In this document: one piece after another, positions 801-64,000 of the stretch
Position numbering within the stretch: the first letter of the stretch is position 1
Layout of the letters: every line of letters starts with the position of its first letter
Source: Phoronis australis
Taxonomy: Eukaryota; Animalia; Phoronida
Assembly (NCBI GenBank): GCA_002633005.1
Contig: NMRA01000057.1
Location: forward strand, 1,080,005-1,144,004
Direction: 5' to 3'
DNA length: 64,000 bases
The notes under the pieces: generated by a model
The model's database searches: none
Told to the model about the DNA's origin: nothing
What the model saw: the letters and a program-made list of their open reading frames with translations, nothing else
Made by a program: the position numbers and the translations under genes

Positions 801-871
801 GGTGCCCCTATTTTGAGAACCCCTTTGATGTCCCTTATTCAGTGGAGAATGTTTCTCAACATAGGGGCACT
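801..871. mobile_element. Small hairpin MITE-like relic (same family as 19987-20089)
   Basis: GTGCCCCTATTTTGAGAA is inverted as TTCTCAACATAGGGGCAC. The internal TTATTCAGTGGAGA is the reverse complement (1 mismatch) of TCTCCATTGAATAA in the 20 kb copy. Confidence 0.45.
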
Positions 872-13924: not shown

Positions 13925-16900
13925 GACTGGAGTTGACCGTTTATACCGCACCACAGCGTAGATGCTGTGCACTACAAAGTTACCTGGTTCTGTTTCCATC
14001 CAGGACAGAAGCAACCCCCCAAAACACCAATGCCTGGACATTATATGGTAGTATGAAAGGGCCAACAGAAAGTTTCCTTTGATATCAAGAACACTGATCT
14101 ATCTCCCTCCCTTTGAGTGGAGCAGGGCAAATACCCAATTATCCATGACTTTAGGACAATAAAACACTAGGCCGAAATCAAATAAACTTCCTGGACAAAA
14201 ACTGGTCATATTTTCTATCTATTTGACTTCTGACATTGAATTTCCTGTGAAAAGTTAAGCAGGCATCAGCTTTTTAAAAAAGAATTTTACAATAAATATC
14301 AATATAATAAATGTTAATATAATACATATTAATATAATAAATATTATGCCAAAAAGGTTAACCGATGGATGTGGTAATTGCTTTATGACTTGTGACCTCT
14401 AACAAAGTATTGCCCAAAGGCTTCACCGTTATCTGATCTTGGAAATCACTTTAGTCTGGACTTGTAACAGTCATGGGTGAGAACTGGCCCCCATGTTGTT
14501 TCTCACTGGTGACAACAGGGGGAACATTTGTAATGGCTAAGACTAGTTTGTTCCTAAGAAGTGATTTCAGGTCTTGCAAACAAGCAATAACCAACTGTCA
14601 GGACGGTCTTTCCAAACCCAGGAATCGTATCTATTTTGACTAAAGGAGCAATTTATGCTATTTCATCACGACAAGTGGTGTAAATCAAAATTTTCTTTAC
14701 TGTGACGCAACACCCTTAGATGTTTTAACAAAAACCGGAACTGGTCACTGAAACAAACAGGTGGTTCAGCATATAGTTAAACTACGCAGTTGTGTGGCAA
14801 GGAATAAGCACAAACTCACTTTGATTGGAAGGCGTATTATGCACCCCTCCATCCCCTCAATCTCCCTTGGTTTAATCTTATCCATGAATCACCTTTCCAT
14901 TACAACACAGGATTCTCCATGGGAAAAATCCAAGCATGGTTAAAACTACAAATCCTGTTTTTGTCTCCTAATCTCTCTTCCTACTAATTCATAACTTAAC
15001 ACCTAGAGTAACATGACAATTAAACTTACTGAGCATGTCACAATCGTTCCTAAAGCAGAAGAATTCACAAGAAACATCATGCAGTACCAAGTATTTCAAC
15101 CATTTACCAAGTAATGCCCAGGCTTTTTCCATCAGGGCTGAAGATTTTGAAACATGGCTCATGGCTTATCAAATATGGCTCAGGGCATCTAAATATGATT
15201 CAGTATTACATGTACATGTATACCTACACACACATCCCATGGGGAACACTGTACCATTATGCCAAAAAGAACCTTAACCATCACCACAATTTAACATCAG
15301 GCAGCCACTTGCCAGTTGGACTCACCTGTCTACCATTGCAATCCACTGGAAATGACCAAGACCCCCTGTGGACAGACAAAAACACTACTACCCCTGAGTG
15401 ACTGCTGAAAGCAATACTGTCACAAATGTCTGTATAGGGCTTTGGGACCATGGCACCAAATGCAAGTGTAAACTATCCCCCAGGCTACTGTATGTGTTCA
15501 GCCTGTTATGTAACACTGTGTAGCAATGCCCTTTACATTAGACAACTGCCATTCACTGGTTCACAGTTCAACACCAGGAACAGCAAATGACCATCCCACT
15601 CCTCTAAAGCCTGAACCATATTCCATCAACCACTGGCTACTGGACATTCTCAACATACCTACTTGGCATTGTACAACCTTTCTCTGATCATGACTGGCAT
15701 TCTACCACCTCACTCTAACACTGCCCCTCACACCTATCAAGGAAGTGAGTTGTTCATTCAAGCTATAGGGTACTGGTACCATAGTACTGTAATTCCTTCA
15801 GGTGAAGTGTTCAGGAAAAGAGAAGGAAATTTCAAAGGGGCGGCATACAAGCCAACATAATAGGCTCGATAATGCTTCAGTCCCTGACAAACTTCAAGGC
15901 AAATGCAAGTCTTTGAAGATCAGTTAATTTATTTACTTGCTTAACCATCATGGTGAAGTTAACACACCGAATTGATACAAGATAAAACCAGGAGTGTTAT
16001 ACTGTATGCTTACCTGCAATGTTGGAAGACAGTGATTCTGTCATTGACAGTAACCAAGGCTGTTACAAGTAGGTATGTAAGTGTTAAAGTGCATGTCAAG
16101 ACTGCTCAGTGTTCTTAACTATAAATTACCATTCATCCTGATTAACACTGAGAATGCTCAGGGCACTTAAACTGAAAATTACAAAAATCAGGGAGTAGGC
16201 ATTCGCACTGCAACTAACAGGTTCAAGGAGCTGCATTTTACAGATACCTTATCGGCATTTTGACCAAACCAATTTTGTGAAAACTTATTTGCAAAGGATA
16301 TAATGGTATGTTTTCAAAATAAACACAATCAAAGCTGCATTTCACTGTTGATGACGCCTACCTATCAATGTTGATTACTTAACGGAAATACTAATGGGGT
16401 TAAAAAAGATTACAACACTCATATGATCTTGTGCTGCAACTCGAGTCTTTTCTCCAGTCGTTGACGGTTTCCTTGCTCTAGTTAAATATGGAATTTTCAA
16501 ACTAATTTTAGAGTTTAGGGTGGTGCATGAACCAAATGTCTTAAGCTGAACTTCATTTTTTATGAATTTCTCGGTATAGATGCAAAAAAATGTGCAGAAA
16601 TGTAATTTATGACCAGAAGTAGAGTTTAAGCGAACCAAAAAGTAATGCCACAAGGCCACTGTAATCGTCTGTAATAGATAGGCGGTGTGTTATCTCTCCT
16701 CGATATTTACCTACGCTGTTGTGTTTAGTTGTATTTGAATGTGTTACAGCTTTGGCCATTTTTTACCATTTATCAGTAAAACATTAGAGCTAAAAACATG
16801 AATGTCGATTCCAAAGGCATCCAACAGACGGATGGGTAGGGTAGGGTATTAGCAGTTGAAAACCCATAAGATACCAACATTCCAAGTACTGTATGTTTGA

Positions 16901-17061
16901 CCTTTGAACTCTGGGAGAGTTGACTTCTAAAGGGGTGAGCCATACAGAAGTTAGGGTTGGTTTATTGACTGTTGTCAACTTGATTTTTAATTTCACGCTT
17001 GTTTTATTTCACGTCATAGTTGACTACACTAGAAAACAGGACGCGAAATTAAATATATTAA

Positions 17062-17434
17062 AGGGGAAGGCAACCTTTTTTCTTGTCATTTTTAGCAAAA
17101 ATAAGGTTCACTGGTTATCCCAGATATATTTTTCACTTAATTGCAGCTTTTCGCAACTTATTAATTAATTGACCAACTCGTAAACAAAAGCAAACAACAA
17201 CCTAACTTATAACAACCAAAGTAGAGCACGGACTGACTGGCAGCTCTCACTGTAGTCAGTCCATACGAAAAGAAATTGGCGCAAAATTCTTGCCTCCCAA
17301 AACGTCACTTCAGGAGTAGAGGACGAGTAATTGTTTAAATTACAAAAAGCTGTAATTAACTGAAAAATATGTCTGGGATAATCAACGAACCTAAATTTTT
17401 GCTAAAACTGACATGAAAGAAGGTTTCCTTTGCC
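17062..17434. mobile_element. Kolobok-like MITE with long imperfect TIRs
   Basis: TTAA on both sides (17058-17061, 17435-17438), AGG start, and about 110-bp imperfect inverted arms (e.g. TTATCCCAGATATATTTTTCA / TGAAAAATATGTCTGGGATAA). Confidence 0.75.
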
Positions 17435-19986
17435 TTAAAGTGAGCCTCACTTTCAGTTTCATGGTGTCACTGTCAAGGACTGAGTATATTTTGTTTCGAT
17501 ACAACAGAAATTCTCCACTTATATCACACAAAAAATAACTGCAAAAATGATCATTTTTTAACAGTTGTTCAATTCCTGCAAATGATGGTAACTTAGTAAA
17601 TTGAGTTTCCTCTTTTGTTCCTCAAGAGGTTCTCAGCCTACTGGAGCCCCACCTAGTGGTTCTAAACAAACCATGTTTCTTCTTGTTTCACAGGTTATTT
17701 CCCCATCAGCAACTGTGACAGCCAACTGTCAACAACCAATTCTTAAAACCTAGTGATAATCGTCTGGCAGTTTATGGTTACATAGGACCTCACAAAATAT
17801 ACAAATTAGGCTAATTTCAGAACATCATTCATATCTCAGAAGTGGCTGATCGGATTCATCACATGCCATATTTTTCATGTACTATTCTCCAAAACAACGA
17901 CAGGATTTTTTGAAATGATCCAGTTTTGTAGGAACAGCTATCAAAAAGGACTTTTGTGACTTCCGTGCAAAAATTTAAAGATACATATAGCGAAGACGAA
18001 ATGACAGTGGATATCGTTGTTTTGCTTTCAATATCTTCGTTTTTGCATAATTTTACTAACATGCCATCATCACGGTCACACTGCATGGCCCACTAAGTTT
18101 GAGACAGATTGTTAAATGTAAAAACCAAATTCTCCAGGCTTTTTTCTTTCAGAAAATGCATGCTTTTACTGAGATCAAGCCTTTGTGAAGATTGGCTACA
18201 TACAAGGCTTATTGATCACCATCTAAAGTTGAGACAAGACTGTTATGAAGATTCAGGGGTGTCAGCAATTTATAGGACAAAGAATGGGCAACAATTATTT
18301 CAACTTTAAGTAATATAGAGACTCCAGACACATGCATTCGTGAAGTACACCAACCTTTATACAAGTTTCAACACCAACTTCACACTATTCATACCCTGGT
18401 TACACATGAATGGCACTGCTTAATTAGTTCCACATGACCGCCTATTTTACAATATTTCACCCCATCTGTTGAAAATACAACATGATCAATCCCTCTCTAT
18501 GTAGTACTTTAAGAACGAGAAGAATCCAGTGTTTTACCTTCGCAGCGTACCACAAAAGGGACAAAAGCACGGCCTCAAAATTACAATTGCCAGAAGTAAA
18601 CCTCCAGACAAACCAACGGCTGCTAAGACACTAAAATTCCATACTTCAAAAAATTTACCCTGAAAAACTCTGGTGCAACTCTGATAAGGGTACAACCTCC
18701 TATCCAAGTTAGTCAGGAAAGTTCTGGTTACTATCAACAGGAAATGGAAAGAACCTTAATAAAACTGTTTATGCAGACTATAATCACATTGTTGAAAAAC
18801 ACAGAACGATTAATCATGGCATACTTCAATGAGCAGCCAATCAGCAATGTGTGATATGTGATGTCTGACATATATACAGATGGCTGTGTCATGAAAACCA
18901 ATTTCAGACCAATCGACTGGAGTGACAAAATTGAAGAAAACAGGTAGATCAACATTATTCTCTCAAAATGAAAACAAACTCTGATCCACAGTCAATTGCT
19001 CAACAACATGACCTTGAACTTATATCATCAAGTATAAAAATCTACATAACAGACAGCACTAATGCTAGGCATTTAAAAAGGCATATTCTAAAAATGTATT
19101 ACAAAGACTAGTTATCTAACTAACACAGGTTCCTTCTGCGTTTACAAGAGGCACATTTGACATGGAGCAGCCAACATGGAACAGCTGAGAGGCGCAAGTA
19201 TGTGACGTGTAAACATGACCGACACGGGGCACGTTGACACGGCGGCGGCCATGTTTGACACCGGTATGAGAGGTAGAGCAAGTTGCACTCAATCAGTTGC
19301 TTCAGTTCCAACGGTATATGCCTAAACATTAACTTAGGCATGACAGAAGAGATCATATTTTATTGCTCTTCAATAGTATACATATGGGTGACCACATTGT
19401 TTAGGACGTTCGCCAAGGTTAATCAGAACATTCCCAGACAGTCTTCGGAAAATAGATGTCTGTGCTGATACAGATTCAGATAATGTTATGGACATTCAAC
19501 TTAAGTGCAGCAACTTGTGAAAGGGACTAATAAACACAGCCAAAGCTACATAACGATTTGTGGCAATTGTGGGCAGTTGTGATATCACTTCTTGTATTAA
19601 TCTTCAGATGAAATAAAGAGTTTGAAAAAATGGTACGTTTACACATCTTATGTCCACTTTTTCACTTCATACTTCCTGCTCAGCATTTTGCCTAACCAGT
19701 CCATTTGCTCAACAGGAAGCTCTAGTGTGTAGCCATACTGAACTGCTTAACTGAGATACCAGCATGCCACTGGGAAACCTTATACCCTGCTATAGTTTGA
19801 CCAGATGGTATACACAGACAAGAGATAAGGGATTCACATCATTCTAATTGAAGTCTGGCATCTGGCTAAAAATTTATGAGCAGGAATCCTGACAAAGGAA
19901 ATTCAATGACTTTCTGTTTGGATGTTAGGTGACCTTTATTTTAGTATTTTGCATCACTACCTAAAGGAAATGCCGGTGTTCTGTGT

Positions 19987-20089
19987 AAGTCATTTGCAGG
20001 GGACCCCACATTTTGAGAACCAGTTTTCTCCATTGAATAACGTGTATCAAACTGGTTCTTAAAATCCAGGGACCTCTGTAAGTGACTTA
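19987..20089. mobile_element. Small hairpin MITE-like element
   Basis: About 40-bp imperfect inverted arms: TAAGTCATTTGCAGGGGACCCC...GAGAACCAGTTT / AAACTGGTTCTT...GGGACCTCTGTAAGTGACTTA. Confidence 0.6.
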
Positions 20090-33619: not shown

Positions 33620-34680
33620 TCAAAACACAGTTTCTGGCGTCTGGTGTGGACTTACTGACTTTTTTCTCAACTCGTATTTTTTCTTCTTCGCAGCTTTTGA
33701 GTCAGGCCCATGTCTGCTTCCATGGCGACTCGCGAACATTTGCAACATAACCATGCTCACTAAAACAAACAACGCAAAAGCCAAGCTGAAGTACATAACA
33801 TAGTACGGACTTTTCTGAAACAAGTGACCGATCAGCCAGTCGAATCCAAATTTAAAAAGGACAGGGAATATCCCAATCCACGCAGAGAAGGATGCGGTAA
33901 TGGTGATGTAACGATTTGCCCAGGACAGACCTGAAGGCCAGTTAGGACCAGTAGTAAAACCGTAGACGCAAGCAAAGATCCAAAGATGGATCTGTGTGGG
34001 TAGCGCAAAGCTCAGGCAAGCGGTTGAGGCCACCACGAGCGTTAAACTGATAAACACTAGAATTTGAATTGGCACGCACAATGAGATGACCCCAACTAAA
34101 AGGCGACCAAGTGTGTAGAAGAGATTAAACAATGAATCCAAAAGCGCAGCATCTTGCTTGGAAAATTTCAACTCGCTTTCAATGGCGAAAGAGAAAAGAA
34201 AGTATCGCACCGGGCCCTCATTTCCGTTTAGACCAACGTAATAAGACGTCATGCCAACTAGCATTATGACACCGAACGGTATGTCACCATCAGCCCAATT
34301 TCCTGGAGAAAAGAAAGACATGCAGTTCTTCTGATTGGATATTAAGCTGTCGGTGCGTTCACTTGCGAGAGCGATTGTTTTTGGTGGACCAACTAGCTGT
34401 AAAACAACAAAAGTCAAAGCACAAAAACTCCCGTATCCTCCTAATATGGCGTATGGTATTTCTATCTGTGATTCGAACTCATTTTCGCTTTGTAACAGAT
34501 GAGTATAAGCTGTAGCATTTCCAGTGCCATTCGCAACAACGCCATCTGTTGCATCTGGGGACAGAAACGATCTCGCTACGAGAGGACAAATGAATGCTCC
34601 GATTCCAAAGCCAACATGCATAAAATGCATCGGTCCACTTGCGTGAGCTCCCCACAAATTTGCTATCATGTAATTACCAA
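33620..34680 (-). CDS. MFS transporter (MFSD4 / sodium-dependent glucose transporter-like), last exon
   Basis: Long open multi-TM frame with LWGAHASGPMHFMHVGFGIGAFICPLVARSFL and LGRLL motifs. Polypyrimidine + AG acceptor at 34681-34682. Phase joins the previous exon (A|TT = Ile). Confidence 0.9.
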
Positions 34681-34958
34681 CTGAAAGAAAAAATGGAGAA
34701 AAGTGACACCTTAGTTCACGTGCACAATTTCTAGCAACGAGCGCATTAAACTGAGACATTGTCATACATGTAGGGGTGTATAACAGCCATAAATGTCCAC
34801 AGGCACTGGTACCGCTTTAGTGCACATGTTGCGGAGTCAACATGAACATGCAATAAACAGTAGATCATTATTATACAATCTTCATACACGTGGATCATTG
34901 TTATACACTATCCATACATAAAACATTCGTTGATAGACTGACGTATGCACGTACTTAC

Positions 34959-43333: not shown

Positions 43334-43350
43334 GTACAGCTACGTGCTGT

Positions 43351-43390
<40 letters not shown>

Positions 43391-43442
43391 GGCCCCTGGC
43401 GCAAGGATGACACGCAAATTCGTGAAGCGTTCCAAATTTTTT
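43334..43442 (+). ncRNA. RNU6: U6 spliceosomal snRNA gene
   Basis: ACATATACTAAAATTGGAACGATACAGAGAAGATTAGCATGGCCCCT(G)GCGCAAGGATGACACGCAAATTCGTGAAGCGTTCC, with ACAGAGA box, AGC triad, 5' hairpin GTACAGC/GCTGTAC and a T6 terminator. Confidence 0.97.
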
Positions 43443-44361
43443 ACTGTTATTGCCATGATGTTATTAGTTTTCTGTTAATCCTACATTTTCAATGAGTTTG
43501 TGAGACTGTTACCAAGTTTGCATTCATTTTTGACAACACGCAGTCAATAGTGTAGCATTGGCAAAATTCATAGTGTAGAGGAAGAATCGTCGCGTGGCAG
43601 AATATTTCATATTTTTTTCTTTTACTTTCTGCCTTTAACGTTAGGAGAATTGCCACGACTTCTGTTTTGATATGCCGAGGAATAAAGTTACTCCAAACGA
43701 ATACTAAGACAAACATTCTTATCTGTATTTACTGACCTCGTGTAATACAGTGGTTTCGAATACTCTCGTCAATTGGTATAGGTTTTAGAGGACTTTTTCA
43801 AAAAATGATGTTTAAAGAGTATCATTCAGCAAATCTTCCACACTATTTTTCCCGTCTCGCAGACACATTTCTGGGCTCGCGCACAGAGCAACCCTGCCCC
43901 GGCACATACTCCCTGCTAGTTGACAAGAGCTATTTCCGAGATACGCTCGCGCGATATTCTCTTCTCTCGGGCGACTTTACATATTAAGGTTATTTCAAAC
44001 CTTATTTAGTGGCCTCTATTCTAACTCGTATATCAAAAAAACTAAGCTTTGTCAACTAGTAAAAGTACATATTTTCTGAAAGGGCAAAGACCAGGAAATA
44101 TAAATATACTTTTTGTACTTATTGGTCATTATTATTTTTACATGTAGATATAAAATTTCTAAGCACAAATCATCCCTCAAAAGTTTTATTTCCTCCAATA
44201 TTTAATTGTTCGTTTTAACCATAATTATTTAACGACTGCTATGAAGGTATCAGATATCATATACTTGCGATTTTGATTACAGTAGGCCATAGGCACATCT
44301 GTCCACCGTATTCGAAGCTGTGCCAATATAAAAAGTAAGCAAACCATTTCAGTAAAAGGAG
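43406..44361 (+). repeat. U6 3' half plus downstream flank, duplicated at 57883-58693
   Basis: Collinear high similarity. The second copy lacks approximately 43988-44145. Confidence 0.92.
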
Positions 44362-45354
44362 CGGGGGGTTTGGTCGCAGTGGACTGGCTAAAAAAAAGGT
44401 TGGCTAAATTCACGCTCATTTCGGCACACGCACATGGGTACTTTTCCCGATTACTTGCCTGTGAAACAGTTTCTAAATTACAGTTTGTAGCGCATTGATC
44501 ACCACTTTTCAGAATAACCTAAGGTGTTTAGTTGAGGGGCAAAGCACTCAGTAAAAAGATCCATTTAAACAATAAAAAAGGTCCTTGCTGAACTTAAGTT
44601 ATGTTATTACATGCCTAATATACACCTCATTTCTTAACAGAAAAACATATATGAAAAAAGTCTTTATGAATCTGCACTAGACAATGTTTTACACCAGTCG
44701 ATATATTCTAAACTATTAATGAAAGTTTTGAATAACTATTCATTGCAAGTGTTTGTGAACAGGTACCACCGTACTGTCAGCGAAAAAACCTTGAGTACCG
44801 TCAGCTCAACATGCTACGAAGTCAGTGCAGTCACCAAGTCCGCGCAAAAAACAACACGCTACGCAACTTAATTGCAGTGTCAATTCCACGGTCCCTTGAA
44901 TAAGACATTGTTTTTCTTTAGAATAACATGGCAAAAACAGATGTTTCCTTCTTTCAGAAACTACTTTTGTTCATGACAGCTCAGAATATGTCGCGGCAAT
45001 TTTCAATTTTGACACACGCATGATCGTTGTAGTTATCAATCCTGCCGACTGCAGGTGTTGCAGTTTTATAATGGCGGTCACTCGAGATCGGCTGCCGCAA
45101 ATGAACACCTCATAAAAACGGTGAATGCGTGAATAAAAAGAGCCTAATCGGTACAAGTAATACATTTTTGGAGGATTCAGAAAATATTAATATCAAGAAT
45201 GTACGTTAATGGAGTCAGATTGTAAACAATAAACCGGATCAGAGTATTTAGGCAAAAACTGTTGTTCTCTTTTTTCCATTTTCCTTGGACCCACGCCGGT
45301 GTCGTGTCCAATAATGCATCTTTTCCAATGATGAATACAGAGGTGGTTTGCGTG

Positions 45355-45500
45355 GTCTGCGCATGCGCCAGTTTTTCGGCTTCCGGTTTTTGCTCAATAG
45401 TGCATCCAAGCATAGATTATAGACAACAGATTCGCAACTCCGGCATATTCTTACGAGCTGAGTTGACCTCTAATGACCTATCTGCTGCAGTTTCCGGTCA
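45355..45500. promoter_or_regulatory. Housekeeping-type Pol II promoter candidate
   Basis: NRF1-like TGCGCATGCGC (45358-45368), ETS-like CTTCCGGT and TTTCCGGT, and a GTGAGT donor downstream near 45628. Confidence 0.4.
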
Positions 45501-45809
45501 GTTTTAATTTGACGAGAAATACCTGCATCTACTTTACTGTCCAAAACAGCGAAAAAAACATTAATTTATATTATTTTCGGTATTGAAACGCTTTTAAAAG
45601 TCTTTCAATAGTAGAAGTGTTGGTATTGTGAGTACTTTTGGCAATGCTACTGGTAATTAATTTCAAAATTCAAACTTCGGTTCCGACCCTTTATGTCGTC
45701 TGCTTGCCCAATAGCAGCATAGTTATCGGACAGTTTTTGATTTACGGTTCACATAGGCCGCCTACTGAGAAAACTACGAAAGCGTGTTGATAAATCAACA
45801 TTCTCAAGT

Positions 45810-45898
45810 GAGCAGTTCTTCTGGGAAGTGTTGAGTGGCCCTTAAAAGGGCCGTTGGTTGTAGGTATAGCGTGAAATGGTTCTTAAAAGAACCGTTGA
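45810..45898 (-). promoter_or_regulatory. Two tandem histone-mRNA-type 3' stem-loops plus HDE-like element
   Basis: Minus strand reads CAAC-GGTTCTTTTAAGAACC (45878-45893) and CCAAC-GGCCCTTTTAAGGGCC-ACTCA (45837-45852), followed about 14 nt later by CAGAAGAACTG. Confidence 0.85.
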
Positions 45899-45924
45899 AT
45901 AATTCAACATAAATCACACAGTAT

Positions 45925-46730
45925 NNNNNNNNNNNNNNNNNNNNNNNNNNNNNNNNNNNNNNNNNNNNNNNNNNNNNNNNNNNNNNNNNNNNNNNNNNNN
46001 NNNNNNNNNNNNNNNNNNNNNNNNNNNNNNNNNNNNNNNNNNNNNNNNNNNNNNNNNNNNNNNNNNNNNNNNNNNNNNNNNNNNNNNNNNNNNNNNNNNN
46101 NNNNNNNNNNNNNNNNNNNNNNNNNNNNNNNNNNNNNNNNNNNNNNNNNNNNNNNNNNNNNNNNNNNNNNNNNNNNNNNNNNNNNNNNNNNNNNNNNNNN
46201 NNNNNNNNNNNNNNNNNNNNNNNNNNNNNNNNNNNNNNNNNNNNNNNNNNNNNNNNNNNNNNNNNNNNNNNNNNNNNNNNNNNNNNNNNNNNNNNNNNNN
46301 NNNNNNNNNNNNNNNNNNNNNNNNNNNNNNNNNNNNNNNNNNNNNNNNNNNNNNNNNNNNNNNNNNNNNNNNNNNNNNNNNNNNNNNNNNNNNNNNNNNN
46401 NNNNNNNNNNNNNNNNNNNNNNNNNNNNNNNNNNNNNNNNNNNNNNNNNNNNNNNNNNNNNNNNNNNNNNNNNNNNNNNNNNNNNNNNNNNNNNNNNNNN
46501 NNNNNNNNNNNNNNNNNNNNNNNNNNNNNNNNNNNNNNNNNNNNNNNNNNNNNNNNNNNNNNNNNNNNNNNNNNNNNNNNNNNNNNNNNNNNNNNNNNNN
46601 NNNNNNNNNNNNNNNNNNNNNNNNNNNNNNNNNNNNNNNNNNNNNNNNNNNNNNNNNNNNNNNNNNNNNNNNNNNNNNNNNNNNNNNNNNNNNNNNNNNN
46701 NNNNNNNNNNNNNNNNNNNNNNNNNNNNNN
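45925..46730. other. Assembly gap (Ns)
   Basis: Run of N. Confidence 1.
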
Positions 46731-46908
46731 AATGGAATTCCTCATCATGACGGCGCAAGCGGAATTCTCTGTCGGCGTAGCTGTAATGATGAGTTTTGAT
46801 GATTCGTTTGTCGTGACTGGTCTATACCACTCATGGTGGAGTAACTAGGGTTCAGTGTAGTGCTCTGTATGTAGACAGAGGTCATGAGCCTTGCTGATTC
46901 TTTTTCAG

Positions 46909-49283
46909 TCAGCTGTAAGCAGTCAGGCATCTGAAAAGGTAGAAAATTGTGCCGGGGCGGTGGAGCAAAGCACTGATGAGTGGTGAGATATTTCAAACTA
47001 AGAGCAGACGTTAGAATTTACGAGTGTTAGATTGTTTGCATTCTGAGCTGTGGTATCAAGCATTTTTGCATTTTGTATGGCTTTGTCTTTGTTTGCTTTC
47101 TCTGTGAGCTTGGGCTCAGCATTTGAGTATGGTAAAAACCATTGTCTGATGTCAGCTCAACATTTGAGTGTGGTGAAATCATGTGCTACTATTGTTTTAG
47201 CTCTAGTCAAAACACGGAGTCCTGTTTACCGTCTGGTTGTGCTAAAAAGAGGAAGTTAAAGGAAGATGACATTTTGGGTGACAAGTCGACGAAAGCTCCG
47301 CGCAAATCAGAGCAGACAGGGAGCAGTGTTCAGGTTTGCAATTTTTTCTGTTAGCATTGACGTGTATCATTTATAAGTCGAGAAAAAGTTGCATTGGGGA
47401 AAACTGAAATTGGATGCTGAGCAACACAAGAACAGAGTTTTTAAATTAAAGTACTACATGGACTGTTTCATAATAAAGAAGCCTTTTATATGCGTTTATC
47501 TTGTGTGATAACTCGACATGTCTGTTGAGGTTAATGGCTGCATCAGCTATTATGAAAGTGTTCTGATGTTCTTAATGTTGTTACAAGTCCATATTCTGTC
47601 AAAAGAACGTACTTTTAATTTGGACCACTTGCCACTTCTTGGTAGAATTTTGTTGTCTTTTTTCAGCCAAGTGTTTTGAGATTAAGAAGTCTTCGAAAGG
47701 CAAAACCTGACCTGGAGGATGGCGAGATACTTATTAACAAAAAGTACGTAGAATATGTAAACTGAGACTAATTAGTTCCACGATTCAATGTTCTGATAGA
47801 TTTCCATTTGCAGAAGATGATTAGAACTTGATGTGTGCTTTAAAGGCACATTATCGAAAAGAAACGTGGTTCTCTGATATCAGCTTCAGTGTGGAATCAA
47901 ATGTGGAGCCCTCACAGTTGCGATCTAACGTTCTGTTGGCAGAGCTAAGTCCTGCCAGATAACTGGCCGAGTACTTTAAGCGTATGTAACTAGTAAAGTT
48001 ACCGACATTCATTTCAGAAAATGTCTGGCTAGAATTGATGACTTGTAATGGAATCGCAAAAATTCAACGGATTTAATCTATCCCCTCCAACAGTAATCTC
48101 AAAAATCCTTTTTTGGCTATAAAACAATATTTTCCCTTTAAAATGTAATGGCATATGTTAATTATTCATCTTGATTGAAATTTTAATACTTAATTACTTA
48201 TGTCTTTTTCAGGCGTCGCAAGTGCTGTGTGAGTATAAATTTGAGGCTTAAGACTGATAGAGTATTATATTATTATACGTCAATTTCACCAATTCATTTA
48301 ACGTACGGGTCGTACGTGCATTCAGTTTGTGTTCGGTCATCTTTCACTTCTTTTGCACAAAAACAGTTCTCAAAATTGGCGGTTTGTTTTCCCGATAACG
48401 ATTTTTCAAAGACTGATCACATTCCTACAAACAATGGGAAATTTACCAAATGTTGTTTTATAACATCTGCTAAAATTAGACTTAAACTAAATCATTATTT
48501 TGTATAAGAAAATAAATATCTCTTATTCGCCTTATTGTGGTCTAAATAGATGAGGGCTGTTCCAGCAAAATCGTGTGGGAGGGGGGGAAGGCAACTGAAA
48601 TAAAAATTTATGGGTGGTTGCGTTTGATTTAAATTCAAAATGGCTGGTGGTCGTACTTCAAAAAAATAAAAATTTACAGGTCGTTGTTTCATTGGGCCAT
48701 AAATGTTTGATGGTGGGTAATTTTAGTAAATTTTATAAACAATCTGCACAGAATCAAAAACTGAAACAGAAATGGAACTTGCAAAAAGCTCCGACTTTTT
48801 CACTCCCTCCGATCTCCTCATCCGCATGCCCATAACTCCATTTAACCACAGGTGCTCGAATTTCTCGATGGCTAATAACTGTATATAAGAAACGTATGTT
48901 TCTTAGTAATGAATGACGTTAGTGGTGACGGAGGAACACATAAACTCAAGCACCTGTGCAGTCAACCACAAGAACAAAAAAAAATTACGGGTGGTTGCAT
49001 TTCAAACTTATAAAAAATTACGGGTGGTAGGCTGAAGAAATAAAAGAAAAATATGGGTGGTGGGTGCGAAAAAAAGGTGCCTTCCCCCCCCTCCCATACA
49101 GATTTTACTGGAACAGCCCTTATCTAAAAATTATAGTTCAGCTTCAGTTTAAACAATTTCTGTACATAAGTAAAAAATAACGGCATTTGTCTTATATGTT
49201 AATGAATTAATATATTTACACATTGATTAATACTGTTTTGTTGTCTTTCCTTGCAGTCCTGGCATCACAGAAAGATAAGCTGA
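46909..49283 (+). CDS. Candidate small spliced gene, unknown basic nuclear-type protein (exons 46909-46982, 47201-47333, 47667-47743, 48213-48228, 49257-49283; 5' part missing)
   Basis: Five exons with polypyrimidine/AG acceptors and four GT donors, phases matching, give an open frame SAVSSQASEKVENCAGAVEQSTDEC-SSQNTESCLPSGCAKKRKLKEDDILGDKSTKAPRKSEQTGSSVQ-PSVLRLRSLRKAKPDLEDGEILINKK-RRKCC-SWHHRKIS*. Confidence 0.5.
48554..49119. mobile_element. PIF/Harbinger-like MITE
   Basis: TIR GGGCTGTTCCAGCAAAATC / GATTTTACTGGAACAGCCC (1 mismatch), flanked by TGA and TTA. Internal repeats AAATTACGGGTGGT. Confidence 0.8.
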
Positions 49284-49336
49284 GTTGCAGACTTTGTGAG
49301 CGACAACAAGAACAATGTGCATTGTCAGTCATGTCA

Positions 49337-50211
49337 GGCCTGAGTTATGCTAGTATTTTGGCTCTCGTAGTCGGCCAAGTTTAAAGACAATTGTTTTTAG
49401 TCTTCTAGGCTTTCATTAGACACTATAAATATGTTGTGTGCCAAATTTCATAGTTGTGCTCTTGATATTGTAGATTTTGGAAGCGATTTTGATTTGAGAA
49501 TGCCTTATGGGCGAGAACTTCATATTTGGCCTGAGTCATGCTAGCTTTTTGGCTCTCTTAGTCAGCCAAGTTTAAAGACAATTGTTGTTGTCTGGTAGAT
49601 TTTCATTAGACACTATAAATATGTTGTGTGCCAAATTTCATGATTGTCCTCTTGATATTGTGGATTTTGGAAGCGATTTTGCTTTGACTTTGCATAAAAA
49701 TGAGCAAGAATTTCATGTGTAGCCTGAGTTACACTAGCTTTTTGGCTCTCATACTCAGCCAATTTGAAAGACAATTGTTTTTGTCTTCTAGATTTTCATT
49801 AGACACTATAAATATGTTGTGTGCCAAATTTCATGATTGTGCTCGTGATATTGTAGATTTTGGAAACGATTTTGATTTGACTTTGCATAAGAATGAGCTA
49901 AGAATTTCATGTGTGGCCTGAGTTATGCTAGCGTTTTGGCTCTCATAGTCAGCCAAGTTTAAAGACAATTGTTGTTGTCTTCTAGATTTTCATTAGACAC
50001 TATAAATATGTTGTGTGCCAAATTTCGTAGTTGTGCTCTTGATTTTGTAGATTTCGGAAGCGATTTTGCTTTGACTTTGCATAAGAATGAGCAAGAATTT
50101 CATGTTTGGCCTGAGTTATGCTAGCTTTTTGGCTCTCATAGTCAGCCAAGTTTAAAGACAATTGTTGTCTTCTAAATTTTCATTAGACACTATAAATATG
50201 TTGTGTAGCAA
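49337..50211 (+). repeat. Tandem repeat, unit about 193 bp, about 4.5 copies
   Basis: GGCCTGAGTTATGCTAG-like unit starts at 49337, 49528, 49721, 49915 and 50108. Confidence 0.95.
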
Positions 50212-53200
50212 ACTCGGCTTCAACACTCCTATTTTGAAAACTCTGTTATTCCACCAGTACATGACAGTTTTCTGAATCACTTCATAGAGCTGCAATAGTG
50301 TTATCTCTACGATTCGATCATTTCGAGTAACCGGGCCTCGAATTCTGAGATAGGAGTCCAGGGACTGTCGCCATCTGGATGCCACAGACTTGCACCACGG
50401 AAAAGCACATTCATCTTTTCAAACAATGTCTCAAGAAGCGCTCTGGTATCAACCTGTGTTGCTGATTACATTCTGTCTCCAACCTTACGACACCTTGCAT
50501 CACAGTCTGTAGCCAGCAGGATGCGAAACTGTGGACTGCTTCAGGGTTACTGATAATTTTTGCCAGGAAGCAATAATGGGATTGCTGGATATTGCCTCAT
50601 TGACGGCATACCAGCCCTTAACCTTTTACAAGCTCAACAACAATTCTCTGAATTTCATTCCAACTAAACCCGGAATTCCACACGGATCAACTATATTCTG
50701 AAGAGATAATGCACACGCACCACTGGAGCAGGAAACACAAGGCCTGTAGTAGGCGATTGACTTAGGTGTCCTGGTGCAAGGAGTGGCTGTCTGCTGGCTC
50801 ACAGAGGGCGGCGACACCGGTATTGTTGACGGCAGCCCAAAGTCATGAACCACAGGAGCAGGAAAAACAAGCCCTGGCTTGGGCAGCAGCTTCTTTGCAG
50901 GTGGCGTTGAAAACTTGGCAGCAATTTCAGGTTTTGGTGGCAAATCCTGTTCCAATACACGCTTTTCTAAAGCCTTTTGTCTGTTATTCCACCAGTATAT
51001 TACCGTTTTTTGGTTCACCTCGTACAGTTGAATGTTTGTTTCATCCATAATTCTGTCATGTCGTGTGACGAAACCACAGATCCTGTGGTAGCAGTCCAAC
51101 ATCTGCCTCCATCTGAATGTCCCAGGTGTACCTGATGGAAAGAAACGTTCCAGCCATTCGAACAATGCCTCAACAAGAGGGCTGGCATCCAAGTGTGTTG
51201 TTGGACCACCACAGGAACCAATAGTGGCTTTTCTCAAGCTCACCACACCTGACGCCACCGTCTGGCTTCGTTTGGAGGCAAAGCGTCCTGTGTGCTTCTG
51301 GTTTTGCCTGAACCGACGAGGGTACATAACTCTTGACTCCTTCACGGACATGGGCAATTTCTGCCAGGCAGCAATGATGCGGGTGGCCATTGCTTCAGTG
51401 ATGGCTTGACAGTTTCTAGCTTTAAAAATCTCATCCGCAAGACCCTGAATTTCGGCCCAACCCATGATTCCACGTGGACCGACGGCCTTCTGAAAGAATA
51501 TTAGCGCACAGTTGAGACACTAGTTTAGTGCAAAACATGACAGTCAATACAAAACGGTAAAGATTATTACTTACATCTGCAATGACTGTGTCTGTGAAGA
51601 TAGTGGTATCTGTATCCTGTTCAATAAACCCCTCGTCTTCCTCACCCTCCACCTCCACCTGGTCAAGGTTGTCAGGCACCTAAATCCATGGAAAAACGTA
51701 AATACATAATTCTGTCCAAGTATTTGATAATGACGTAGTTTTTATACTAAATTTTCATTTATTTTGAGCTATATTACCTCTGGGTCAATGGTGGGCTGGA
51801 GCCAAACCTTTCCAGTCTGTGAGTTCAGGTACTCTATACCCAGCAGCTCTCCTGTGTATTGGGCAGGTTCCTGGCGTCCTGTGTGGCTTGTCCTGTACAA
51901 CACTTTGTGTAGCCTGTCAACTTCATGACAAAGGGCATTGTCAAAGGTCCTCATATGACCTTTTTCCACAGAAGCTGCCTCAGCCCTGAGGTCGTTCCAT
52001 CGACCGATACCCTCCAGCAGATATGCCTGGAAATTGGCGTCACTGGCTTTGGTACCTGTAATACAGTCACAAAGTATTTTCACATAATAGTAAGCACAAA
52101 ACTAGGATAGGGTAGCTACCGATATCTCCCTAGTGTGTCAATATTTACAGCAATGATATTTCACCAAAGGTATTCTGAGTTTACACAGTATTTATCACAA
52201 TGGTCTTCTCAAACCTGACTTACCAGGCACAAACCTGTTGATATGCAGGTGAAAACTCTCTAAGGAGGTTGAACCTCTAGCACACCTGTAAACAACCAGC
52301 TCTACACCTCCTATCGTCTTGGTGCCGATCTGTGTGTATAATTGCACTCTCTCTGGGTCTTGGATGCAGGGCAGATGGTGTTGCTGCTCTTTCAAGATTA
52401 CTTGTGTCAGCTCCTTGTCCACAAGGACCACACCCATGGTGTCACGTCCTCTGTCTCCACTGAATGTTTCCAGCAGCTCAGTGATGAGTTCCATGGTAGC
52501 CTCCACACCACGAGTCCTTCGCTGGCAATGAAGTTGCAGCTCCATTTTTGTGATACTTCGAGCCACTAAGGAGTCATTGACCTCCCAAATGCCTTCAGCG
52601 GTCAACTTGGCCGATTTTGCCTGTCGCAACCTCTCCAAGTCTTCAGGATCCCACTCATAGATGGCAGCAGAGACATAAACGTGGGGTAAAGGGAGTGAGT
52701 CTCGGAGCACACAGACCCGGACAGTCTCCTAATGCAGTGCCTTTTGTCAAGCCGCCAATCACCAAACAATTCATTTATACGCTGCGAGCAGCAATCCCGA
52801 TCCACGTATAAAACACTAGAGGCCGTCACATTCGCATCACTATATCGCTTCATGAGACTATCGACCATGTCGCGCGGACCTTCTCCTTCGGACTCCGTTA
52901 CCACAGAAACGAGTACTTGTCCAAACTCGTTTCCAACATTGGTTACCCACATGGCAGTGTCAGCAGCCCGGCCAGCAAGTTTCTTGGTCAACTGAAATAA
53001 ACGAGCCATTTTGGTACCTAACACAATACAAAAGCAAACCTTACTTAACACAACCTACAACCTTACACTACAATTCTTATTTTCTTTTTCTTTTTATTGA
53101 TGATAAGCAATGTAACACCTTCAAAGATTTGCCCATAGTTGTTCATAATCTTCAACAGCGCGGGGGAATCACAAACAGTAATGCCTCAAGCAATGGAAGT

Positions 53201-56200
53201 GATACCTTTTTCGTTGAATCCATTTTGAGCACCGACCCAAAAGTGGATGTTATCTTGGCCTTGACCTGGTCCAGTGACTGTACAACATCGAGGAGGTAGA
53301 GTTGCAGGAACCATGGGTACAGTGGTACTTTCACCATCTCTGGTAGGTTAGGCGGAGTTGGCAGTATAATCATGCCCCTGTTAGCCTGACGCTTGTAAGG
53401 TTCCACTGCCTGAAGGAACAACAGCATCCTCTCAAGGTGGCACTCACTGTGTTGTTCCAGAATTTTGTTGTGGAGCTGGGATGAGGAGTTCCTCTCTCTC
53501 ATTAGTTTCACCACCTTCAGGGCACATGACAACCTAGAATGTAATTCAAAATGAAACCAACATTTTTACTTGAGGGCTATTGAGCCAACTGAATGGCGAT
53601 TTATACACCATATTCAATAACACCTAAGTTTATAAGAAATCAAGTGCTTTGTCAACTAGGAATTTTGACATGGAGTCCGACTACCAGCAGCAGGCCTTAC
53701 TTGTAGGTTAACAGAGCTGGGAAGAGATGTCTGAAGCCAAGGCTCAATTGTTAGTATGTGTGTCGACCAAGCCGGGAACTTCTTGCGGCACCGCTTGCAT
53801 TCTAGGTACTCAGTGCCGATCAGATACCATTCACTGACATCCAGCACTCGTCTGAGTGTTCGGTACATGCCAGCTTGAGTGAGGTGAAGCTGTATAAGAT
53901 ATGGAAGTATACAACAGTGAAGAAATGAATTGGAAGATATGCAGTCAGACGCTATCATGCTAAGCTATCACTTTAAAAAATACCGTCTGCTAAAGTAGTT
54001 TACTACAGCACTTGCCAATGGAGACGAAATGTAAACGAAGCAATTCAAGACTATGGAGCAATGTTGACTGGGCCCATAAGTCTATCAATGTGCTGTGTCC
54101 TGGTAAGACTTCAACTCCACATCTTTATATTGGGATGTGAATGTGACGCAACCAGACCACACTGCTTCCACAATCCCTCTCAATACTTACATCTTCCTTG
54201 TTTTGCTTCTGTCGCGACCTGCACTCTTCATCGCAAAGAAACTTTAATCCCATGGAGCGCTGCAGAGTCCACAGAAAGAGCTTTCGCATGAGAAAGCTTT
54301 CTGCACTTTTGGGAGACTGTGAAGGTTGGGTTCAGGTGGGTGGTACCACATTCTGAGATCCTGTCTGTTCTCTGACTTCTCAGTGCGAGAACTAACTGTG
54401 TACAGCTCCTTACATAACCATTTCTGCTCCGGAAGTGTGAGAACCTCCTGCCAGGTTTTTGGAAGAGCATTCTGTAAAAGTGACAACACGAACATCAAAA
54501 ACTTTCAACTTCAAATTTGTCTCAAGTGAAGAGCTACAGCTGGCATGATTTCGACGAAGCTTAACAGAAAACACATCATCAATAAAAAAACAAAAACTTA
54601 CACTACTAGCATAAAATATATCTATAATAGAAATGCATTATGAATACAAAGAAGCAATGTTGTTTGTCACAATTACATCCGAGTGACTGCAACTCCTGTT
54701 GTTGAGACATTACCTCATCAATGGTGACTTGTGTTGGTGGCAGAGTAAATACTTGAGGCACGTCCACATTTGGAACTGAGGGTGGTAGACTAGGTATTCG
54801 GAACAAAGGGTCAACCAGCGGTGTATCCACTAGGACCTGGTACGGGTGTTTCTGCAAAAGGGGTACAAATGCGGTTGAGGAATACCATATGACATCTGTA
54901 TTGTGAACAGTTGTAAAATATTTTGTTGATTATTAAATAACAAGCATTTAATTAAGCTGGGTTTAAGAAACTGCTTTCAGTCTCAACGAGCACACGTAAA
55001 TGAGCAGTGCACCGGAGAGGAAAACAAGTGAACTCTTATGGAGATTAATTGGTTAATGTCAATAGTACAAAATTGTTCATACTCAAATAGGTATCAATGT
55101 ATCATACAAGGAAGGTCTTTGCTTTTATATTCATGATTGTTCTACTAGCAGAACGTTACAAATTAATCTCACGTTAGCTCTCGACTCACCACACAACAAG
55201 AGAAGTGAATACCAGAGGCTACACACTAACATAGTGTGAACCAAACTGAAAAATAATGGGCTGTAAATATGAACATTATGGTACTAGTAATTAGTTTATG
55301 GTTGCTAATCAAAACTGAAATCCACATTCCCCGTGCATCATGCTTAAAACACGAGACAAAAGTAATCAGGCAAAATATCGGCTAAATTTGTGAACACCAA
55401 AAATTATTATAGCAATTGATTTCTGGCTTAGCCATTTTTACTAACCCTCCAGTTGTCATGACCTGTGAATTCGTGTCACTTTGTTTAACTATTTTAGGCA
55501 TGTATTGTTAGACAAAGATTAACCAAGACATCAAACAAAATACCATTATTTGAAATCAGTTAGTAAGACACATAACCATGCAGTAAGAGGGTATGGACAC
55601 AATACACTGGCTGTACTTAATAAATAACTTGAGCTCATCATTTAAATCACTTGGTGACAACAGTAGCAAAATTCAATATCGCGCTTTGAGTAAGGCCATT
55701 GGAATTAGTATTTAGAAGTACCACCACTGTATAGTGTCCACACTGAGGACATGACATCTTCAGCAAGCAAATCTCATATACCTTTGGGAATCTGCTGCTC
55801 TATTAGCTGGGCAGCCTTGACCAAACAGACATCGTCAAGGTCCTCATCTATCTGTGGTTGGCTACTCGCTTCAGATGCCCTGGTTTTCTCCACCCTTTCT
55901 CTCTCATCTTTTAGATAGCGGTACCGGTTCGCTTGTGTCACCAATGGGAACATGTTGCAGTATCTGCAACAAAGCATTAATTGGTATCTTCTTCAAATGC
56001 TAGAACAATGTGTACATGAAGTAACAGCAATTCTTAAGTTGATCAGAAATAGTAAACATGAACTCAAATCCTATATTGTGTACATTGTATGTACCAAAAT
56101 TATAATAATTAACAAAAGTTCACCTGAGCAGGGCTTCCTTGTTATCAAACTGTGGATCTGGGCACCGTGGGATTTTCCCCTGGGACTTAGAGAGCTGGTG

Positions 56201-57882: not shown

Positions 57883-57918
57883 GATGACACGCAAATTCGT
57901 GAAGCGTTCCAAATTTTT
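57883..57918 (+). pseudogene. RNU6: 3' half of a disrupted U6 snRNA gene
   Basis: GATGACACGCAAATTCGTGAAGCGTTCCAAATTTTT is identical to 43406-43441 and is followed by the same genomic flank. The 5' half is absent. Confidence 0.93.
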
Positions 57919-59326
57919 AACCGTTATTGCCATGATGTTATTAGTTTTCTGTTACTTCTACATTTTCAATAAGTTTGTGGGACTGTTACCAAGTTTGCAT
58001 TCATTTTTGACAACACGCATTTAATAGTGTAGCATTGGCCAAATTAATGGATTAGAGGAACAATCGTCGCGTGGCAAAATATTTCATCATTTTTTCTTTT
58101 ACTTCCGACCTTTGACGTTAGGAGAATTGCCGCGACTTCTGTTTTGATATGGCGAGGAATAAAGTTGCTACAAACGAATATACTATGACAAATATTGTTA
58201 TCTGTATTTACTGATCACGTGTAAATACACGTGTTTCGAATACTCTCGTCTTTTGGTATAGGTTTTAGAGGACTTTTTTAAAAAAATGATGTTTAAAGAC
58301 TAAGTATCATTCAGAAAATCTCCCAGACTATTGTTCGCGTCTCGCAGACACATTTCAAGGCTCGCACACAGACCGACCCTGCTCCGGCACATACTCCCTG
58401 CTAGTTAGTAAGAGCTATTTCCGAGATACGCTGGCGCGGTATTCTCTTCTCTCAGGCGACTTTACATGTTAACTAGATATAAAATTTCTGAGCACAAATC
58501 ACCTCTCAAAAGTTTTATTTCCTCCAATATTTGATTATTCGTTTTAACCATAATTATTTAACGACTCAGTGCTTCGAAGCCATCAAATATCATATGTTTG
58601 CAATGTTGATTACAGTAGGCCATAGTCACATGCGTCGACCGTATTCGAAGCTGCGCCTATATAAAAAGTAAGCGAACTATTTCAGTAAAAGGACACTTGG
58701 AATTGATTCTTTGCCGGGACATAGGCGCACTGAAATCCTATTTTGAATACTGACACACGGCCTTTTTGCTCTTGAAATAAACTACATAATCTTGCCAATG
58801 AATAAACATACTTAAATATACACAGTCGGCTTTTTGCAAAGTACAATGTGAGACTTAATTCTAACTCATAAGGTTTTTTAGTTGAATAATTTGGCATTTT
58901 CATTGGTTTATCTGGAAAGTGGACTGCATGGATTATGTCAATGATTCCCACTTTAAAATAAAATATCCCGAGAATCTCTGTATGTAATGCACCCTCTTTA
59001 GGTTTGGTCACACTGTGCTAGTTTTGTTCTTCCTAGTACACTAATACGACTAGAACCAATTTTGAAACAGTTATGAAATGGACTGTTAGCTGTCATTGTC
59101 ACTAGTTTAACAAAACTTCCCAAGTAATTCGTTGCCTAGCAGAACGTCTCATCCCAATAACTCAGGAAATGTGCTGTCAAAGTCCTCTTGTCCAGGACAA
59201 TCAGTGCGCCTAACCCAGGCAAGGCTTGCGTCAGTATAAATGGCATTCATCCACCATCACCTATAAAGGAAACTTACGCGCACTGTGTGTGTGTGAAAAA
59301 CAAATGAGTAGAGATAAATGTATCTT

Positions 59327-59948: not shown

Positions 59949-61675
59949 AACAAGAGCAACGCGGAGCGTTGAAATGCGCCCACGAATGCATCACAAATGG
60001 TGTGCTTTTGGGGTTATTTATTTGTATCATAAAAAGGCCACTAGATGGCGCAAAAACGTACAAGCCATCAGAAACGGAAACATGCCATATTTCATAAAAA
60101 TTGTCAAAGAACTTTAGAGAAACAAAGGAAAACAGAACAAAATGAAACTGCCTCTTGTAGGCACAGCGTCCGTTCCATCTGCCTGAAAGTCGTCGTCTAT
60201 TGTTATCTTCATATAAATTCACTTACTAAATTTAATAAAGATCCTGCAGTGGGTTTTGGAGATACTATTATGGGCGCAAAACAAAACAAAACTACCTCTA
60301 GGAGGCGCCACAGTAGTCAGTCGCCATCAGCAAACGTCTTCTTCACACTGAAAACATATATGCCAATTTTCAAAACCATACCTAGAATTATTTGGTTGAT
60401 CGAGGGGTGGACGCCAAAAACAAGATTTGAAAACAGCAAAAAATGGCCACCACATGGCGCAAAATACCTCGATTCACTCAAACACAGGATGATAGCGTCA
60501 TCTCACCAATAGATGCCTATATTCAAAATTTTATGAAAATCTGTTGAGGACCTTTGAAGATACAGACTGGTAAACGTAAAAAACTAAAATTGCCACTAGG
60601 GGGCACACCACTAGTCAGATCCGTCCGAAAGTCGTGTCATCCATTGTCAACATGATATACATACACTTGCTAAATTAAGTAAAGATCCTGCAAACGGTTT
60701 AATAGATACAGCCATGAGCGCAAAAAAAACTGCCACTAGGAGGCGCCAAAGTAGTCGAACTCGTCGGAAAATAGAAAAATCGTCGTCAGCCGTCCACTTC
60801 ATAGCAAAATCATACATGCAAATTTTCACAATTATCCTGAAAGCGGTTTGGTTGATAGACGGGTGGACGCCAAAAAATAGACTCGAAAAAGTTAAAATGG
60901 CCCCTAGGTGGCGCAAACTAGGTCGAATCCATCTGAAAACGGAGAAATAGCGTCGTCTCATTAACAGATGCCTCTATGTCATATTCTGTGAAATTACGTT
61001 GAGGACCTTTGAACATACAGAGGTAAACGTAAAAAACTAAAATTGTCACTAGGTGGCACACCAGTAGTCAGATCCGTCTGAAAGTCGTCGTCCTCCCTTG
61101 TTAACATCATATAAATACACTTACTAAATCCTGCGAACGGTTTAGGGGATACAGCCATAGGCGCAAAAAAACAATACTGCCACTAGGGGGCGCCACAGTA
61201 GTCTAAGTCGTCCGAAAATAATCGTCAGCCGTCCACTTCATAGTAACAGCATACATGCCAATTTTCACAATCATCATTTGAGCGGTTTGGTTGATAGAGG
61301 GGTGTGGACGCAAAAAAACAGACTCGAAACTAGGTGGCGCAAACTACGTCAAATCCATCCGAAAATGGAGGAACAGCCTCATCTCACTAATAGGCGCCTA
61401 TATACCAAATTTTAGGATAATCCGTTCAGTACTTTTGAAGATACAGAGGTAAACGTAAAAAAACTAAAATTGAGGGGACACAGGTAGTCGGATCCGTCCG
61501 AAAGTTCGAGCATGCCGTCCCATCCACGGAAGGAACACATGTGCAAAGTTTCATGAACATACATGTACGTCAAGGCGTTTTGGAGATAGAGCAGCGGACA
61601 CCGGGCGTCGGACGGACGGACGGACGGAGATGACGGCATAATGCTTCCACATATAAATATGTGGGCTCATAAAAA
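59949..61675 (-). mobile_element. HINE/DINE-1-like (Helentron-associated) non-autonomous element with internal tandem repeats of about 430-455 bp
   Basis: Subterminal IR ATGCGCCCAC (59974) / GTGGGCTCAT (61661), terminal hairpins CAACGC-GGA-GCGTTG and CCACATAT-AA-ATATGTGG, a (GGAC)n microsatellite, A-tract ends, and about 3.3 internal repeat units. Confidence 0.75.
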
Positions 61676-62339: not shown

Positions 62340-64000
62340 CGGAGAAATCTTTTTTCTCTCCAGCAGCCACTCAGCTGGCTTTTTACCTCCAACAAAAGGT
62401 GTCCAACCCATTCACTCACGAATGACGGCTATGGCCAAACTCTTTCGTCCTCAGCTGGTGGCAGTTATTGTACGAGTTCTGATGTTTGTATTTTGTCAGG
62501 ATGATCGCGTGACTTTCTTTCTCTCATTTTTGCCTGTAATTGGTACCAGACTTTGGTATTCTGGTGCAAGCAGATAATTGTTTTGAGATCTGCTGGCTAA
62601 GTGAAAGTGGTAGCTACAGTGCCGTTGCTGGTACCTAAGTCATGCACCAGAGTAACAGGATACACAAGGCCTGGCTTTGGTAGTAGCTGCTTGGGACCCG
62701 GTGTTGATGACTTGGCTGTCATATGACGCTTTGGAAGCAAACTCTGCTCCAACACTCGAATTTTGAAAACTCTGTTATTCCACCAGAACATGACAGTTTT
62801 CCGATTCACTTTATAGAGCTGCAGATTTGCTATCTCTACGATTCGGTCATTTCGAGTAACCAGGCCTCAAATTCTGAGATAGGAGTCCAGAGACTGTCGC
62901 CATCTACATGTAGATGCCACAGACTTGCACCACGGGAAAGCACATTCATCTTTTCAAACAATGCCTCAAGAAGCGCTCTGGTATCAACCTGTGTTGCCGG
63001 ATCACCACAAGAACTGTTCTTTCCCTAAGCTTATAACACCTTGCATCACAGTCTGTAGTCAGAAACACGTGAAAGTGTGGACTGCTTCAGGGTTACTGAT
63101 AATTTTTGCCAGGAAACAATAATGGGATTGCTGGACATTGCCTCATTGACGGCATACTAGCCCTTAACCTTTACAAGCTCACCAAAAATTCTCTGAATTT
63201 CATTCCAACCTAGAATTCCACAAGGATCAACTATTTTCTGAAGGAATAATGCACACGCACCACTGGAGCAAGAACACAGGGCCTGTAGTAGGCGATTGAC
63301 TTACATGTAAGTGTCCTGGTGCAGAGAGTCGCTGTCTGCTGGCTCAAAGAGGGAGGGGACACCACAGTTGTTGATGGTAGCCCAAAGTCATGCACTGCAA
63401 GAACAGGAAAAACAAGACCTGGAAGCAGCTTCTTTGGGGCTGGTATTGACAAGTTGGCAGACATTTCAGAATTTGGTGGCAAACCCTGCTCCAGCAATCA
63501 CTTCTCCAAACCCTCCGCCAGTATATGACGTTTTTTGATTGATCCCATACAGCTGCATGTTGGTCAGGTCCATGATCTTTCCTGTTGTGTGACAAGACCT
63601 CGAATCCTGTGTTATCACTCCAGCATTTGTCTCCATCTGGATGCTCCGGTATACTAGATAGGAAGGCACGTTCCAACCTTTCGAACAATAATGCTTCAAT
63701 AAGAGGGTTGGCATCCACGTGCGTTGCTGGTGCAATACAAGACCTAATTGTAGCTTTCCTCTAGCTCACCATACGTTCTGTCGCTATCTGGCTTCGTTAG
63801 GATGCAAAGCGTTCTCTGTGGCTCTGGCTCAAAAGTCTTCTAAAAAAATAATGCACTGTTGAGACACTGCAGTTTCATGGAAAACACGTAGGTCAATAGA
63901 ACACATTCAAGACTATTATTTATATCTGCTTAGACTGTACCTGTGAAGATCTGTTCAATAAACCCCTTGCCTTTCCTGGCTATCCATTTCAACCTGGTCA
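62340..64000 (-). pseudogene. Second, more decayed Dada-type transposase copy (3' part; continues beyond window)
   Basis: 62750-63830 is collinear with about 50221-51300, and 63950-64000 with the 51575-51679 exon. It additionally retains the C-terminal motif CHQLRTKEFGHSR...FC...EWLLE at about 62350-62490. Confidence 0.85.

Follow-up and report, generated by a model that had tools for sequence, protein, structure and literature searches.

A dispersed repeat of Phoronis australis carries two perfect histone-type stem-loops and a purine-rich box behind the stop codon of what is likely a non-histone gene. We propose, with a probability of roughly 0.55, that this is the gene of a DNA transposon with a borrowed histone mRNA end, whose message would be bound by SLBP, cut after the second loop in a U7-dependent manner, and tied to S phase and oocytes. 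The element likely borrows the histone 3′ pathway because the likely non-histone gene stops just before both hairpins; binding, cleavage, and timing are projected from that pathway as it is described in PMC7026596. The locus lies in a window of 64,000 nucleotides, by which we mean the whole stretch of DNA that was analyzed and to which all coordinates refer. Evidence on further copies comes from public sequencing runs aligned to the locus; X1 is a DNA run, X1 and X2 represent one sample, and X7 and X8 are RNA runs.

Tandem histone-type hairpins and the reading frame ahead of them

Both hairpins lie on the minus strand, where they had been described in the initial annotation as perfect, 41 nt apart, and preceded by CAAC, and our analysis agrees in each respect. 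The proximal stem-loop 1 occupies 45893-45878 (GGTTCT-TTTA-AGAACC) and the distal stem-loop 2, the predicted processing loop, 45852-45837 (GGCCCT-TTTA-AGGGCC), each with CAAC directly on its 5′ side and with 41 nt between their starts. Two base pairs distinguish the stems from each other, and as both sides are changed in each case, both stems are perfect. The spacer that separates them (45853-45877, minus strand) is 25 nt long and is about 16 nt longer in sister subfamilies. No other perfect GG..CC hairpin of the 6+4+6 type occurs in the 64 kb. A second-order Markov model predicts 0.0006 single loops per window and about 3e-10 same-strand pairs within 100 nt or less, which rules out a chance origin. 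Against the Rfam Histone3 family (RF00032), loop 2 scores 36.0 bits and passes the gathering threshold of 34, while loop 1 reaches 22.8 bits (E 0.0016) and stays under it because it has no downstream element of its own. In the predicted RNA fold of 45828-45910 (z -5.8) both loops form, together with an extra small hairpin, GTTGAA-TTA-TTCAAC (45894-45908, minus strand), that spans the stop codon, appears in both the minimum-energy and the centroid structure of RNAfold, and would take the CAAC 5′ flank of loop 1 into its stem. The 16-mer of loop 1 is that of a zebrafish h2a probe to which Slbp2 bound in EMSA, there with other flanks (PMC6239174), and the 16-mer of loop 2 is that of the human H2AFX loop (PMC2413145). 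A two-loop precedent in H2A.X was not found in the available portion of PMC7807067.

The initial annotation had also placed ACTCA and a purine-rich stretch behind the distal loop, and both are present on the minus strand, at 45836-45832 and, as CAGAAGAACTG, at 45823-45813. By analogy with the known histone tail, the mature 3′ end is predicted near 45832; histone mRNAs are described in PMC7026596 as having a 4-5 nt tail, with ACCCA ahead of the cleavage site. The purine run of the CAGAAGAACTG box begins 15 nt past the stem of loop 2, and in the mouse H2a substrate, according to the same source, the AAAGAG core begins at 17 after the stem. The box is thus sited at the expected, histone-like distance and is a candidate histone downstream element that may pair with U7. 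The arrangement resembles a metazoan replication-dependent histone mRNA 3′ end (RF00032; SLBP, U7 snRNP, CPSF73) in its 16-nt loop, its 5-nt A/C-rich tail, its purine-rich box about 15 nt downstream, and the stop codon shortly ahead. It differs in that the frame is non-histone, two tandem loops share one box, and the whole lies in a dispersed repeat.

Exact-pattern scans for the loops or for the repeat terminus described below gave no matches in viral contigs and none in bacterial and archaeal genomes. Ten metagenome loci with tandem look-alikes were rejected; all 10 are unrelated, have no CAAC-flanked loop behind a stop codon, and show no significant match to the window.

Ahead of loop 1 the window holds the visible 3′ end of a likely non-histone frame (45904-45924, minus strand), which reads I-L-C-D-L-C and then TGA. 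This stop codon (45906-45904) sits 10 nt before loop 1, and the loops follow in sense orientation. At 45925 the sequence enters an assembly gap of 806 N (45925-46730), within which the remainder of the frame and the element's far end are predicted to lie. Past 45924, the same 30 letters are shared by 12 X1 contigs (agreement 0.82), by 38 X8 RNA reads (agreement 0.81), and by one X5 contig that has 1 difference over 130 nt; the continuation thus agrees in three of the four runs, and the contig of the fourth, X6, ends short of 45924. On manual translation of the minus strand, the 30 nt prove open in one of three frames, which reads EDLQYLSEHG in phase with the ILCDLC-stop codons of the window, so that 16 codons are known in all. 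The three consensuses of the continuation differ by two third-position changes that are synonymous and by one further change that alters a residue. That the exact window locus continues in the same way is inferred from these near-identical copies. The frame ends in CxxC, so the protein may be a transposase or a helper with a zinc-binding domain. What stands directly upstream of the loops is therefore ILCDLC-stop after EDLQYLSEHG rather than a histone coding sequence, and we know of no core or linker histone with such a C-terminus. Among all 143 stop-to-stop frames of at least 75 aa outside the gap, there was no Pfam match to a histone, a reverse transcriptase (RT), or a GIY-YIG domain.

The gap itself is likely longer than its 806 N, because a unique X1 contig (3208 nt, depth 45) that matches 46731-47053 exactly reaches 2885 nt further toward the gap, and this extension has no listed match to the left flank.

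A dispersed repeat with a sharp terminus

The hairpins lie in a multi-copy sequence. In X1, unique sequence to the right of the gap is covered at a depth of 39-45, and summed depth rises to between 6,100 and 46,000 at the listed places of 45596-45876 (14,000-20,000 at those of 45596-45789; 6,103-46,000 at those of 45789-45876), a sum over contigs that is not equal to copy number. A single 139-nt contig covering 45474-45611 with 2 differences has a depth of 2565 in X1 and 445 in X2, which is 57 and 67 times the respective unique levels of 45 and 6.7. The repeat thus has at least about 55 near-identical copies and probably a few hundred. At several places nearly all copies are unlike the window, which means that the window copy has private changes.

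The repeat ends sharply at 45411, so that the shared sequence reaches 426 nt past loop 2. Before 45411 the flanks are unlike one another in 78 X1 contigs, 74 X2 contigs, and 217 X7 reads, with an agreement of 0.41, 0.42, and 0.55, respectively. Read alignments contain joints from 45437-45452 to 45575-45628, and in one X1 contig 45446 is fused to 45819; as these joints link both, the terminus and the loop region belong to one element. The terminus (45411-45452, plus strand) begins CATAG and is a candidate terminal inverted repeat of about 42 nt. These 42 nt are common to 66 X1 contigs that then switch to another common sequence, which may be the opposite inverted-repeat end or a sister family; within the window there is no second copy of the terminus. 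Between terminus and box lies the subterminal non-coding part of the repeat (45453-45812), covered by the X1 depth and the 139-nt contig given above, in which a variant poly(A) signal, ATTAAA, is found on the minus strand at 45508. The earlier proposal that the tandem loops mark the end of a mobile element has held up in so far as they lie at the end of a mobile-type repeat.

Many dispersed copies that share one sharp terminus and have unlike flanks are what a DNA transposon with terminal inverted repeats presents, and a cut-and-paste DNA transposon is the likely class to judge from the sequence. Within that class our best guess is a P-like element, an uncertain assignment to which we give about even odds if the element is a DNA transposon; further candidates that begin with CA include Academ and hAT. 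The CATAG at 45411 fits CANRG, the terminus of the P superfamily. The candidate inverted repeat of about 42 nt compares with 31 bp in the Drosophila melanogaster P element, and P-family target duplications measure 7-8 bp (both PMC3698922). The flank consensus ends in AC in all four runs, as does the Galileo/P target GTANTAC (PMC4168063); the 7 bases that flank the window copy itself have no terminal AC. The resemblance is known from one end only, with no transposase, THAP domain, or 7-8 bp duplication in view, and a CxxC C-terminus and histone loops are absent from P element descriptions in the available portions of these sources. We do not claim membership in the P superfamily.

Two other assignments of the terminus were rejected. 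Helitrons have a 3′ CTRR end with a hairpin ahead of it; here the minus-strand end is CTATG, and the fold of the terminal 110 nt (z -0.59) is no better than that of shuffled sequences. An LTR or LINE end is excluded by the absence of TG..CA and of a tail.

A second, more diverged repeat with an X1 depth of 500-7,000 adjoins the terminus at 44700-45410, and the element may have inserted into it. In a run from another organism, the repeat is met as a single contig (depth 2.3, 2 differences in 127 nt); this could reflect DNA carry-over, and we do not take it as a sign of conservation between species.

Proposed mechanism and competing explanations

On our reading, SLBP would recognize one loop or both in the mRNA of intact family members, the purine-rich box would base-pair with U7 snRNP, and CPSF73 would cut about 5 nt past loop 2. 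The product would be a non-polyadenylated message that ends with the stop codon, loop 1, loop 2, and ACUCA. Loop 1 would act as an extra SLBP site and set no cut of its own. Translation and stability of such a message would track SLBP, a protein abundant in S phase and in oocytes; it is then that cut-and-paste transposition adds copies and that these gains are inherited. In its fullest form, which we put forward tentatively and as somewhat less probable than not, the proposal describes a young P-like family of several hundred copies with a zinc-finger-tailed gene, with two SLBP sites in tandem and a U7 box that selection maintains, and with a non-polyadenylated mRNA that is timed to S phase, loaded into eggs, and missed by poly(A)-based surveys.

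According to PMC7026596 and PMC5054213, histone mRNAs are the sole mRNAs known to be processed via SLBP and U7. No report of a transposon that uses histone 3′ processing was found in the full-text literature outside subscription journals, Repbase entries, and preprint supplements, and the accessible parts of PMC13525598 and PMC1924863 do not mention one. If the proposal is true, a transposon client breaks the rule that SLBP and U7 serve histone messages alone, cut-and-paste elements would have a simple route to act at replication, where copies are gained, and in oocytes, where they are inherited, and poly(A) RNA-seq would underestimate such elements.

The explanation that competes best, though we consider it unlikely, is that the hairpins are passive cargo: the transposon would have captured a histone 3′ UTR behind its gene, and polyadenylation of the mRNA would take place at a more distal site such as the ATTAAA at 45508, a signal whose presence speaks for this alternative. 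So do the RNA reads. Both strands of the repeat are present in X7 and X8, of which 18-19% of each run was read and for which library selection is not on record. In X8 the sense-strand depth is flat, at 40-47, across 45791-45846, and within the portion read neither run has a pile of read ends at 45832, so the sequenced sense RNA is mostly uncut at this position. Such a pattern is expected if the libraries were selected for poly(A) or if the reads stem from copies within host transcripts; the proposed mechanism gains no support from these data.

Variation among the copies bears on the same question. Alignment over loop 2 and the box is retained even in diverged copies, which have 5-12 differences in 72-78 nt. 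The changes in spacer length fall between loops 1 and 2: loose ends at 45861/45862 in X1, X5, and X8 correspond, by hand comparison with the window, to a longer spacer. Several copies leave the window sequence 7-28 nt beyond the box (loose ends at 45785-45806). None of the six listed places that vary by at least 2% in X1 falls within the 32 loop positions out of 155, a distribution that is not significant (p about 0.25). Changes do occur: two X1 contigs have one in a stem that leaves a G-U pair, and four X8 reads have changes at 45846 and 45848; in a few reads the stem is broken. Loop conservation among the copies thus hints only weakly at selection, and since the family is young, intact loops prove little against passive cargo. 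What argues against it is that the loops stand in sense orientation 10 nt behind the stop codon, that two unlike stems are both perfect, and that diverged subfamilies retain loop 2 and the box while the spacer and the downstream DNA vary.

It is improbable, at about half the weight we give to passive cargo, that the frame belongs instead to a multi-copy non-histone host gene family with a histone 3′ end, whether it has multiplied by segmental duplication or as part of a repeat. The 16 known codons assign the frame to no protein family, which leaves room for a host gene, but one sharp end with dozens of unlike flanks indicates insertion and not segmental duplication.

Slightly less credible again is a reading for which the initial annotation gave an example, namely that the locus belongs to the 3′ portion of a retroelement, Penelope-like or other, whose frame is followed by a pseudo-LTR. 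Such elements share with ours a dispersed repeat, non-coding sequence, and a defined end downstream of the frame, and an RT and an endonuclease could sit in the gap. Penelope-like elements differ from what we see in the hammerhead, for which an Rfam scan of 44600-45924 at E up to 5 gave no match (although Rfam can overlook minimal hammerheads), in a direct-repeat partner, of which the window has none, and in the RT and GIY-YIG domains missing from the 143 frames outside the gap. The repeat end has no poly(A) or simple-repeat tail and reads CATAG, 426 nt past loop 2, which agrees better with the terminus of a cut-and-paste DNA transposon than with Penelope. Moreover, the last 421 nt would be missing from an RNA cut at loop 2 and could not be copied from it, and the terminal 42 nt are common to a second shared continuation, as inverted repeats would be. 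These observations do not support the Penelope-like example.

An ordinary or orphan histone gene hidden in the gap and ending just ahead of the loops, the other option raised initially, is very unlikely despite two loops of exact histone type and the habit of multi-copy histone genes to leave gaps, because ILCDLC-stop fits no known histone C-terminus, the continuation (including the X5 contig with its single difference) is a CxxC-stop frame, and the flanks are dispersed and not tandem.

Probable RNA editing and other features of the window

The RNA reads of X8 contain 26 places with A>G changes in 45792-45902. At the 21 of these that are listed, the changes fall almost all on first-mate-minus reads, and in X1 DNA, which stems from another individual, they are absent at 16 places and below 2% at 5. 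Clustering on one strand is likely the result of A-to-I (ADAR) hyper-editing of antisense repeat transcripts, and the one-strand pattern suggests that the X8 library is stranded.

In one X1 contig (depth 30), which joins 45851 to 45832, two hairpins of the loop 2 type lie about 56 nt from each other, and 36 other letters stand between them; the genome thus has another kind of tandem arrangement at a different place.

Further to the left of the element, the window contains a U6 snRNA gene (43334-43441, plus strand; Rfam 104.7 bits). A block that starts inside the 3′ part of this gene (43406-44360) is duplicated 14.5 kb away at 57883-58693 with 87-89% identity, and the duplication adjoins a 51-nt tandem repeat. 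At 50629-54504 (minus strand) lies a broken large gene with three DUF6729 matches, of which there is a partial second copy at about 62680-63830; it is adjoined by a 193-nt tandem array (49329-50206) and is likely another mobile element. A 398-aa open frame at 33623-34816 (minus strand) matches the Major Facilitator Superfamily. Finally, a motif with the core CCACTAGGGGGC, which resembles a CTCF site, recurs six or seven times at intervals in 60127-61508; in most of the other copies of the element, a similar core comes after the 42-nt terminus.
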